Positions 29,353 to 29,694 of a DNA stretch of 64,000 nt are shown here, one piece after another. Every line of letters starts with the position of its first letter. Positions within the stretch are counted from its first letter, which is position 1. Below the pieces are notes generated by a model. The model made no database searches. It saw nothing but the letters and a program-made list of their open reading frames with translations, and was not told where the DNA came from. Made by a program: the position numbers and the translations under genes. The stretch is from Opitutaceae bacterium (lineage in GTDB: Bacteria; Verrucomicrobiota; Verrucomicrobiia; Opitutales; Opitutaceae), in contig JADJTK010000016.1 of the NCBI GenBank assembly GCA_016711225.1, forward strand, positions 32,810-96,809. The letters are read 5' to 3'.

Positions 29353-29694
29353 TGGCGAACGCTACAAGTGAGACACGGCGGAGAGCGAGCAGTGATTGGA
29401 AGGCGGACACTTCACCGCCGTTGTCTCTGCTGTCTGGTGTGCGCCCGACATGACCGTGAACCAAGAAGTGAAAGTCTTCGATGTGCGAATCCAAAAACAA
29501 GGCATTAGACGAAAGCAACTGCGACGCCGCGAGGTGCCGTGGGAAGGAAGCTGGAGTCAAAACGGCGAGCCCACCATCAGCCGGCGGCGCCCTGCGCGCC
29601 GCGGGCTGATGGAGACTGGAATCGCCCGGTACGGACCCGTACGCCGGGTGGTGTGGGGGCCGGCGGCTAACTGCCGCCGGCTACCCGATTCGGC
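29353..29694 (-). other. attC site interrupted by mini-intron A
   Basis: GGCGAAC (29353-29359) ... GATTGGAAGGCGGAC ... CTGTCTGGT | intron | TCGGC. With the intron removed, the right box reads GTTCGGC. Confidence 0.7.
29439..29689 (+). mobile_element. ORF-less 251-nt group II intron derivative (mini-intron A)
   Basis: It starts GTGCGCCCGACATGACCG. The first ~140 nt match the intron at 35209, followed by a GC hairpin CATCAGCCGGCGGCGC..GCGCCGCGGGCTGATG, then DV (CGCCCGGTACGGACCCGTACGCCGGGTG) and DVI, ending CCCGAT. Confidence 0.75.

Follow-up and report, generated by a model that had tools for sequence, protein, structure and literature searches.

A 251-nt, most likely catalytically dead group II intron remnant with the same deletion junction at two attC sites of an Opitutaceae chromosomal integron

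Element A is a 251-nt sequence on the plus strand at 29439-29689 of the window (the whole 64,000-nt stretch of Opitutaceae DNA analysed here), which starts with GTGCGCCCGAC and ends with CCCGAT. To judge from its sequence, it is most likely what an internal deletion has left of a group IIC-attC intron, the type that targets integron attC sites, and is no longer catalytic. Approximately 87% of the intron is absent from A, including the EBS1 arm, DII, DIII, and the RT. A is a fresh example of a documented type of decay product, with the small twist that the same deletion junction is found at two attCs. The favoured reading, held at a probability of roughly 0.6, is that A arose by decay of an intron and that homologous recombination among intron repeats, and not jumping, copied or reshuffled it.

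The integron array and its intron-derived elements

The lower-GC island at approximately 28-44 kb of the window is a chromosomal integron of Opitutaceae with small cassette ORFs on the minus strand. Six intron-derived elements (A, B, C, D3, E3, and F) were found by BLAST within 9 kb of the array, and the features that surround A are as follows.

28443..28578, plus strand: E3, a 5'-truncated intron remnant at the array end beside tRNA-Gly (sequence comparison)
29667..30176, minus strand: GrpB-family cassette ORF (Pfam GrpB, E=8.5e-15)
30731..30831, plus strand: D3, a 5'-truncated intron remnant (BLAST, alignment)
33187..33437, plus strand: copy B, the 251-nt twin of A, with the same deletion junction at a different attC (94% identity to A over the whole length)
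34159..34494, plus strand: copy C, 336 nt, F nt 1-159 plus 1759-1908 (BLAST against F)
35209..37116, plus strand: F, an intact 1,908-nt group IIC-attC-type intron with an RT/maturase ORF (Rfam, TIGR04416)
43201..44703, plus strand: integron integrase IntI, divergent from the minus-strand cassettes (TIGR02249, 361 bits; cutoff 265)

IntI contains the Pfam domains SAM_4 and Phage_integrase, two IS110-family transposase genes lie inside the cassette array, and the distal array end adjoins tRNA-Gly. The uninterrupted attCs, whose bottom strand is read on the plus strand, run from GCCTAAC through a stem with an extrahelical base to CTGGT/TAGGC or CTGGT/TCGGC, and the R' boxes in the array are GCCTAAC or GGCGAAC. 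By their predicted architecture, these sites appear to be genuine attCs, with an imperfect palindrome, R'/R'' and L'/L'' boxes, extrahelical bases, and intI nearby. The integron context was established by IntI together with the canonical empty attCs.

F matched the Rfam group II intron models RF02001 with 124 bits and RF01998 with 40 bits, and its ORF contains RVT_1 and GIIM domains and scored 359 bits with TIGR04416. The best plasmid-borne relatives of the F RT are class 1 integron introns with 48% amino acid identity (the best at 99% coverage), and by best-match identity this RT is a putative member of the IIC-attC clade. The best plasmid relative is an antisense intron located between dfrA16 and qacEdelta1/sul1 in a class 1 integron; it is inserted at CTTGT/TAACTC, and in DVI and at the 3' end it hardly differs from the F family.

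Group IIC-attC introns insert into the R'' box of the attC on the bottom strand, with the consensus TTGT/T (PMC3001079, PMC7923331). Every element of the array whose 5' end is kept lies exactly at GT/T of R'', antisense to the cassettes. A occupies the R'' box of a bottom-strand attC directly 3' of the stem-loop, and it lies on the plus strand with the cassette ORFs, such as GrpB, on the minus strand. At least four suitable CTGGT/T sites in the array are still empty. Intron-derived sequence lies exactly between the ORF and the attC stem in 6 of approximately 12 cassettes. The last 7 codons of the GrpB ORF (NRVAGGS) and its stop codon are the reverse complement of A's DVI, and the ORFs beside A, D3, and B all end in the intron-encoded NRVAG(G/S)S followed by a stop; these intron-encoded ORF tails are a side effect of insertion at R''.

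Among the other elements, the flanks of B are unrelated to those of A apart from 80 nt of attC at 76% identity. Copy C lacks 61 RF02001 positions. D3 begins near the centre of an A/B-like junction and runs through DV and DVI, and no attC precedes it. The DV loop of E3 bears a tandem insertion of 2 x 33 nt.

Anatomy of A

The target site and the parts of A were assigned as follows.

29354..29438, plus strand: attC of the cassette, bottom strand (sequence, ssDNA fold, uninterrupted attCs of the array)
29439..29580, plus strand: intron 5' segment, F nt 1-142 (BLAST 95.8%, copy alignment, Rfam RF02001)
29574..29612, plus strand: remodelled deletion junction, a near-perfect 17-bp palindrome (folds)
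29586..29620, plus strand: last codons of the RT ORF and remnant of the DIV 3' strand, F nt 1805-1839 (BLAST, D3-type intermediate)
29621..29652, plus strand: Domain V, with 10 bp, a 2-nt 3' bulge, 3 bp, and a tetraloop (RNAalifold)
29654..29687, plus strand: Domain VI, with the bulged branch-point A at 29683; the intron 3' end is at 29689 (covariation)
29690..29694, plus strand: rest of the R'' box, TCGGC, which is the 3' exon and the IBS3 side of the target (empty-site comparison)

Two BLAST matches define the relationship of A to F. A nt 1-142 aligned to F nt 1-142 with 95.8% identity (E=6e-62), and A nt 148-251 aligned to F nt 1805-1908 with 91% identity (E=5e-37), so the deletion in A corresponds to F nt 143-1804, or 1,662 nt, and only approximately 5 nt of A are unaccounted for. 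The preliminary description had presented A as a 251-nt, ORF-less, internally deleted derivative of the neighbouring group II intron that ends in CCCGAT, keeps about 140 nt of the intron 5' end, and occupies the same position of a different attC from F. All of this held: the extent and the end were confirmed on the sequence, the proposed alignment to 35209-37116 gave matches at both intron ends, the kept 5' part is the 142 nt aligned above, and the flanks (CTGTCTGGT/element/TCGGC) are those it had given. The loss of about 1.7 kb also stood, but its replacement by a short GC hairpin did not, since the 3' arm of the hairpin is the diverged end of the RT ORF. The homology, which had been thought to resume exactly at DV, restarts 35 nt upstream of DV, in the RT ORF tail.

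The attC at 29354..29438 comprises the complement of an R' box, GGCGAAC, an imperfect stem with an extrahelical base, and the GT of the R'' box, and it forms the 5' exon and the upstream stem-loop of the intron target. The 142 nt that follow open with GUGCG, the intron 5' end, and also contain the proximal helices of DI together with the 5' strands of the arm on which EBS1 is normally found. A -10-like TCTAAT, without a -35, was seen by eye in this segment. The remnant at 29586..29620 falls inside the 104-nt BLAST HSP to F.

The RF02001 alignment of A begins at 29523 and then skips 76 model positions; with 76 of the 170 RF02001 positions missing, A scored 27.8 bits, which is below the gathering score. 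In this alignment, the sequence behind the palindrome was paired with the closing strands of the DI arm, and this pairing was rejected as an artefact because of the sub-threshold score, the many non-canonical pairs, and the lack of conservation in B. The sole other Rfam hit on A, Yfr1, was judged spurious.

No Rfam model matched DV or DVI of A even at E<=1, and covariation within the family was used in place of the Rfam models. RNAalifold with 22 family members gave 13 pairs for DV, 4 of them with compensatory changes, and 13 pairs for DVI, 3 of them with compensatory changes (26 pairs together, 7 covarying), and A fits the DV structure fully. The termini and core helices of a group II intron that are present in A are thus the 5' GUGCG at 29439, DV, and DVI with the bulged A.

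EBS1 was placed, by its covariation with IBS1, in the four nucleotides directly 5' of CACAACG. The EBS1/IBS1 pairs are ACCA/TGGT in many copies, TCCA/TGGA in the related locus L019, and GCCA/TGGC in L055, with few one-base exceptions. The RF02001 alignment put EBS1 of F (nt 180-183, 35388-35391, ACCA) in the terminal loop of the long DI arm. In A, EBS1 and its arm are deleted together with the remaining DI, DII, DIII, J2/3, and DIV, leaving no complete six-domain ribozyme with EBS1/EBS3, and there is no ORF for an RT/maturase. The earlier view that A is too small to be a complete ribozyme is in keeping with this inventory. Group II introns need the DI core, EBS1, DII, DIII, and J2/3 for target recognition, splicing, and reverse splicing. 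Since the EBS1 arm, the rest of DI, DII-DIV, and the RT are missing, the RNA of A is predicted to be unable to splice or reverse-splice on its own.

The palindromic deletion junction

The junction of A at 29574-29612 consists of CCATCAGCCGGCGGCGC, a loop, and GCGCCGCGGGCTGATGG, which form a near-perfect palindrome of 17 bp, and the same junction in copy B is a perfect palindrome of 17 bp. The junction k-mer of A and B is GAGCCCACCATCAGCCGGCGGCGCC, and the A/B palindrome was detected in no other related locus among those fetched. Sequence comparison showed that the 3' arm of the A junction is homologous to F nt 1805-1831, which is the diverged end of the RT ORF, and in the alignment D3 represents an intermediate form. 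Relative to F, approximately ten changes turn the A/B junction into a palindrome, and approximately 5 nt are untemplated. The central hairpin had also been considered as a foreign sequence or a pure inverted duplication, a view that was revised once the 3' arm of the hairpin proved to be the diverged ORF tail, with new sequence limited to about 5 nt. The junction of copy C carries a perfect 10-bp palindrome of its own at 34320-34342. Template-switch correction of a quasi-palindrome may have remodelled the junction.

Related introns and their size classes

Further copies of the mini-intron, the 251-nt form shared by A and B, were sought with a pattern made of the DI motif, 90-120 nt, and the DV core, which required an exact match to the two conserved motifs. 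This pattern gave 0 matches in 185,579 species-representative genomes and the JGI metagenome collection, neither of which apparently contains the source MAG. The further 251-nt copies to be sought in other genomes thus did not turn up in either large collection, and A and B in the window are the only ones in the sequences covered. The general DI motif matched 13 genome loci, all of them in Opitutae or Verrucomicrobiota MAGs, and 41 metagenome loci. No pair of 5' and 3' intron ends closer than 484 nt was found in 63 related loci. Profile searches for the two intron ends and mapping to F separated the family into the following size classes.

Approximately 1.89-1.97 kb, many loci: full-length
766 nt, L052: ORF-less, ribozyme intact
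692-707 nt, L016, L019, L026, L042, L048, and L046: ORF-less, ribozyme intact
645-648 nt, L059, L035, L023, and L027: ORF-less, ribozyme intact
484 nt, L034: ribozyme-dead, without F nt ~190-500
336 nt, C, in the window only: ribozyme-dead
251 nt, A and B, in the window only: ribozyme-dead

L016, L019, and others keep F nt 1 to ~545 together with DV/DVI. The ribozyme-intact ORF-less lineages were found at a variety of attCs whose flanks are unrelated: L059 shares 98.6% identity with L035, and five separate attCs hold a copy of the ~705-nt lineage. On these sequence comparisons, the ORF-less class of ~650-770 nt was plausibly mobilised in trans. L034 carries an insertion of approximately 50 nt at nt 142/143, the same spot as the 5' breakpoint of A and B. 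The mini-intron amounts to two complete copies and one possible fragment in a single array, short of the copy number of a MITE- or SINE-like element, and A does not have the intact ribozyme of a splicing-competent ORF-less intron.

Divergence and mosaicism of A and B

Alignment of A with B showed differences at 15 of 252 positions, and alignment of their attCs at 21 of 86 (75-76% identity). Beyond the attC, the similarity of the two sequences is at random level, and the ORFs beside the two elements show no relationship. A segmental duplication as the source of the two copies was rejected because the homology ends at the attC; likewise, the simple local duplication allowed for in the preliminary description does not agree with flanks that are unrelated beyond the attC. 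Between A and B, to which the junction is confined, 2 of its 39 positions differ, versus 21 of 86 for the attCs (Fisher p=0.011), and the corresponding comparison of the whole element with the attC gave p ~9e-6. As the palindrome exists only in A and B, it could not have been homogenised against F or C. The lower divergence of the junction indicates that it post-dates the split of the two attCs, as far as such sequence distances can date it, which argues against simple co-ancestry of the mini-intron and its attC.

The relationships of A, B, C, and F do not follow a tree. Over the 5' part common to them, all four are about equally distant from one another, and a 5' variant block of B is common to C and not to A. 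At the 3' end, A is 97.6% identical to C and F versus 89% to B, the DVI stem of B has two compensatory pairs (GGGAG/CTCCC) that are absent in A, and the DVI loop variant CTAACTG is common to A and E3. The attC of A is closest to that of B (75% versus 64-70% for the other sites), and the attC of C is closest to that of F.

An orthologous GrpB cassette with approximately 92% nucleotide identity was found on L065, a 1.1-kb metagenome contig from an independent run. There, the cassette is abutted at the same position by the intron 3' end, but the element is an E3-type remnant, preceded by the non-attC repeat DNA of E3, and not an A-type mini-intron with attC. The different remnant at the orthologous cassette indicates that one lineage recombined between two intron remnants. 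For the cassette protein beside B, no homologues were found.

Origin and spread

The mosaic variants and the difference of the L065 remnant favour homologous recombination or gene conversion. On this reading, an active F-family intron would have retrohomed into the folded bottom strand of an attC, at GT/T of R'' and antisense to the cassette gene, and a 1,662-nt internal deletion would have left nt 1-142, the ORF tail, DV, and DVI, after which the deletion junction would have been remodelled into the GC-rich palindrome. RecA-type homologous recombination or gene conversion between independently inserted introns would then have brought the junction to the attC of B, and probably to D3, as the deleted allele is flanked by 142 nt and approximately 100 nt of homology and could convert a full-length neighbour. 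A would not move as RNA, and the chief effect of such remnants would be that of direct repeats, dispersed over the cassette array, through which parts of it are reshuffled or lost. The original retrohoming, the order of the events, and the copying by gene conversion are what we infer from these comparisons, and from only two complete copies neither the direction nor the mechanism of the copying is provable. The positions at which A and B differ are scattered along the element without outlining a clear conversion tract, which speaks against recombination, as do the nearest-relative pairs of attCs, A-B and C-F, which pure independent insertion does not predict. This kinship leaves room for some co-ancestry or for a preference of the intron for certain attC variants, to judge by the attC sequences. 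The compensatory changes in the DVI of B may alternatively mean that this helix is under selection in the mini-intron itself.

The mutual nearest-relative attCs of A and B, and likewise of C and F, would be expected if the mini-intron and its attC had spread as one module from an ancestral attC and had then been joined to different genes, as the preliminary description had proposed for one of its two modes of spread. In the cassette genesis of Leon and Roy, a gene acquires an attC when an intron lying downstream of the gene recombines with one located at an attC (PMC7923331). The unrelated ORFs beside the elements and the cassettes with intron-derived sequence between ORF and attC stem suit such a history. 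However, the divergence of the attCs is four to five times that of the elements and also significantly above that of the junction (the 21/86 versus 2/39 given above), and the type-1 attC is merely a common family of the array, with 64-70% identity among the empty sites. Moreover, we know of no mechanism that duplicates an attC stem without its cassette, and joint spread with the attC is accordingly rated as rather unlikely.

The other proposed mode was mobilisation in trans. The mini-intron would then be a non-autonomous retroelement, and the RT/maturase of F would recognise its RNA, perhaps by DV/DVI or the hairpin, with catalysis in trans. The lack of EBS1, most of DI, DII, DIII, and J2/3 in A weighs heavily against this, and to our knowledge no missing DI core has been complemented in trans. 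An RT supplied from elsewhere would have an apparently intact source in F, 5.5 kb away, and the exact intron termini at two attCs with unrelated flanks, the ribozyme-intact ORF-less relatives that apparently moved in trans (L059/L035 and the ~705-nt lineage), and the compensatory changes in the DVI of B are all compatible with it. Yet the two or three copies lie within 4 kb of one array that still has at least four empty sites, and no matches were obtained elsewhere in the two large collections or the 63 related loci. The 5' truncation of D3 at the hairpin is what an RT stall would give, but D3 is not preceded by an attC. Mobilisation in trans thus appears highly improbable. The remaining explanation, that A and B are independent recurrent deletions at identical breakpoints, draws on the frequency of internal deletions in the F family (C, L034, and the ORF-less lineages) and on the fact that nt 142/143 is also the insertion point of L034, which may be a fragile or tolerant single-stranded junction. 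The 5 untemplated nucleotides and the approximately ten palindrome-making substitutions common to A and B contradict it, no microhomology is evident at the F breakpoints, and the shared derived junction leaves recurrent deletion with next to no likelihood.

Possible host function

A further rival to a mere decay product is a remnant exapted for a host role, such as an mRNA 3' end or insulator, a donor of stop codons, an outward promoter, or an antisense RNA. The retained 142 nt include the region in which IIC-attC introns have the outward promoter P1out, at ~nt 77-106 of DI (PMC3001079); a sigma-70 scan detected no outward sigma-70-like promoter in the retained 5' part of A or B, which counts against this role. 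Three cassette ORFs end in the intron-encoded tail, as a stop-codon donor would provide. No T-run follows the hairpins on the cassette strand, and the absence of a terminator-like signal there likewise disfavours exaptation. The retained parts are 95-97% identical to F, and the folds of the mini-intron are more stable than those of shuffled sequence (z = -3.9 and -5.2), which would suit such a role, but similarity to F and stable folds are also expected of a recent derivative of a structured RNA. With two copies only and no conservation outside this genome in both collections, exaptation is considered distinctly unlikely, and only a slender chance is given to the broader proposition that the mini-intron is either a minimal non-autonomous group II retroelement or an exapted structured RNA. 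If that proposition were true, the DVI pairs of B and the perfected palindrome would reflect constraint and not recombination.

Significance and comparison with known systems

A reveals no new mechanism. The array and its relatives do provide a graded decay series of one IIC-attC family in a Verrucomicrobial integron, from 1.9 kb through 645-766 nt to 484, 336, and 251 nt, together with comparative evidence that dead remnants serve as dispersed homology that rearranges cassette arrays. The cassette ORFs of this array gain intron-encoded C-termini, and attCs split by remnants may escape tools that expect an intact R'', from which integron annotation could suffer. If mobilisation in trans were true, A would set the minimum RNA requirement for group II retromobility; the evidence, however, argues against it.

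Among known systems, the group IIC-attC introns represented by S.ma.I2 (Leon, Quiroga, Centron, and Roy) resemble A in the GT/T site of R'' on the bottom strand and in the antisense orientation, and a clinical class 1 integron intron has nearly the same 5' GUGCG, short DV, and DVI/3' terminus. The insertion site in the Opitutaceae array is CTGGT/T, whereas the published consensus is TTGT/T, and the host of A is a Verrucomicrobial chromosomal integron, whereas the hosts of IIC-attC introns are proteobacterial. Unlike these introns, A has no RT and has lost most of the intron.

Simon et al. reportedly described in 2008 bacterial group II introns that have no ORF and depend on a related RT acting in trans. 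A resembles them in having no ORF and in sharing its genome with a related intact intron, but their DI-DVI ribozyme is complete and that of A is not, and for this reason the trans-RT model cannot be extended to A. Such ORF-less introns are rare in bacteria and dependent on related RTs, and the group III introns of Euglena chloroplasts lack DV, lie in many cases in essential genes, and are excised from mRNA (PMC4424553). A shares with the group III introns the extreme size reduction and the retention of terminal motifs, but unlike them it keeps DV, is intergenic and antisense, and has nothing that suggests splicing.

Further parallels are fragments and internal deletions documented for bacterial introns, such as the RmInt1 fragment FRE652 and the internal deletion in AK83 (PMC4181065), and the truncated IIC-attC intron UHB.F1 in a cassette array (PMC7923331). 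Like FRE652, the AK83 deletion, and UHB.F1, A is a dead remnant at a homing site beside intact relatives. FRE652 is truncated on the 3' side, and UHB.F1 and H.ha.F1/F2 are truncated on the 5' side, whereas in A both termini survive and flank a single large internal deletion, and unlike FRE652, UHB.F1, and H.ha.F1/F2, A carries a deletion junction that recurs at two attCs.

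ORF-less relatives with an intact ribozyme

The IIC-attC family of the intact intron F includes derivatives of approximately 645–766 nt that lack the ORF and retain an intact ribozyme, found at the ten loci listed below.

ORF-less, ribozyme-intact derivatives (minus strand where marked)
L016:868-1573
L019:795-1498
L026:120-825
L042:4200-4906
L048:307-1013, minus
L046:1671-2362, minus
L052:5701-6466
L059:166-810
L035:168-813, minus
L023:290-937, minus

These derivatives, from several Verrucomicrobiota MAGs and metagenomes, comprise at least two diversified lineages. The attC-like sites they occupy differ and have unrelated flanks; the L059 and L035 derivatives are 98.6% identical. 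Judged from sequence, they look like ORF-less IIC-attC introns that are mobilised in trans. A review describes ORF-less introns as rare in bacteria (PMC4424553).

Deletion junctions and insertions

The junction of the 336-nt derivative C (window 34320-34342) is a perfect 10-bp palindrome, AGGTTTTGCG TGC CGCAAAACCT. Because C is palindromic even though its deletion differs from that of the 251-nt copies A and B, palindromic junctions may be a regular by-product of deletion formation in F-family derivatives. A 484-nt ribozyme-dead derivative (L034:133-616, minus strand) lacks F nt ~190-500 and carries an insertion of about 50 nt (TTCCGAGGCGAAGCCGACAAGACCGGGC...) exactly at the equivalent of F nt 142/143, where A and B have their 5' breakpoint. 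Both L015 copies (4453-4720 and 5987-6250) have a related insertion elsewhere in DI.

In the DV terminal loop, directly 3' of GGTACGG, an insertion of 31–34 nt with a small hairpin (GCCTTGTGCGAAGGC) was found in five independent loci, including the 5'-truncated remnant E3, and would represent either an expanded-DV lineage or a very small insertion element that targets a precise site.

DV-loop insertions
Window 28460-28525 (E3), tandem duplicate
L065
L057:1925-2034, minus
L058:3201-3314, minus
L060:4907-5022, minus

Cassette ORFs and flanking sequences

The minus-strand ORFs next to A, B and the truncated remnant D3 run through the R'' half-site and on into the 3' end of the intron sequence. 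There a TAG from the reverse-complemented DVI loop terminates them, so that all three share the C-terminal tail NRVAG(G/S)S*.

Minus-strand ORF ends within intron 3' ends
29667-29689 (A)
30809-30831 (D3)
33415-33437 (B)

The orthologous GrpB gene of the 1.1-kb contig L065 probably has the same tail, since its length is equal (169 aa) and its ORF likewise enters the intron 3' end. The array's top sigma-70-like promoter match (TTGTCA-18-TATAGT, 10/12; 30195-30224, minus strand) closely precedes the GrpB cassette ORF, within a stretch of about 550 nt (30177-30730) that contains no recognisable attC. On the side next to the ORF, ~265 nt of this stretch are conserved in L065.

The motif CACAGAGG(G/A)CAC(G/T)GAGG... 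is repeated at 28353-28400, 30388-30405, 30600-30650 and 44947-44965, directly upstream of both D3 and E3 and again past intI, as well as in L065; it is accompanied by GTAGGCCACCGCGG at 30419 and 30700. This repeat may have a role in the truncation of the two remnants.

IS110-family genes

The cassette array also contains two IS110-family transposase genes, one apparently partial.

IS110-family transposase genes in the array
38850-39734, plus
40813-42240, plus

In a related Nibricoccus integron, such a gene adjoins the intron (L009:12159-13424), and the occurrence of these genes in both integrons is reminiscent of attC-targeting IS1111/IS110 elements.
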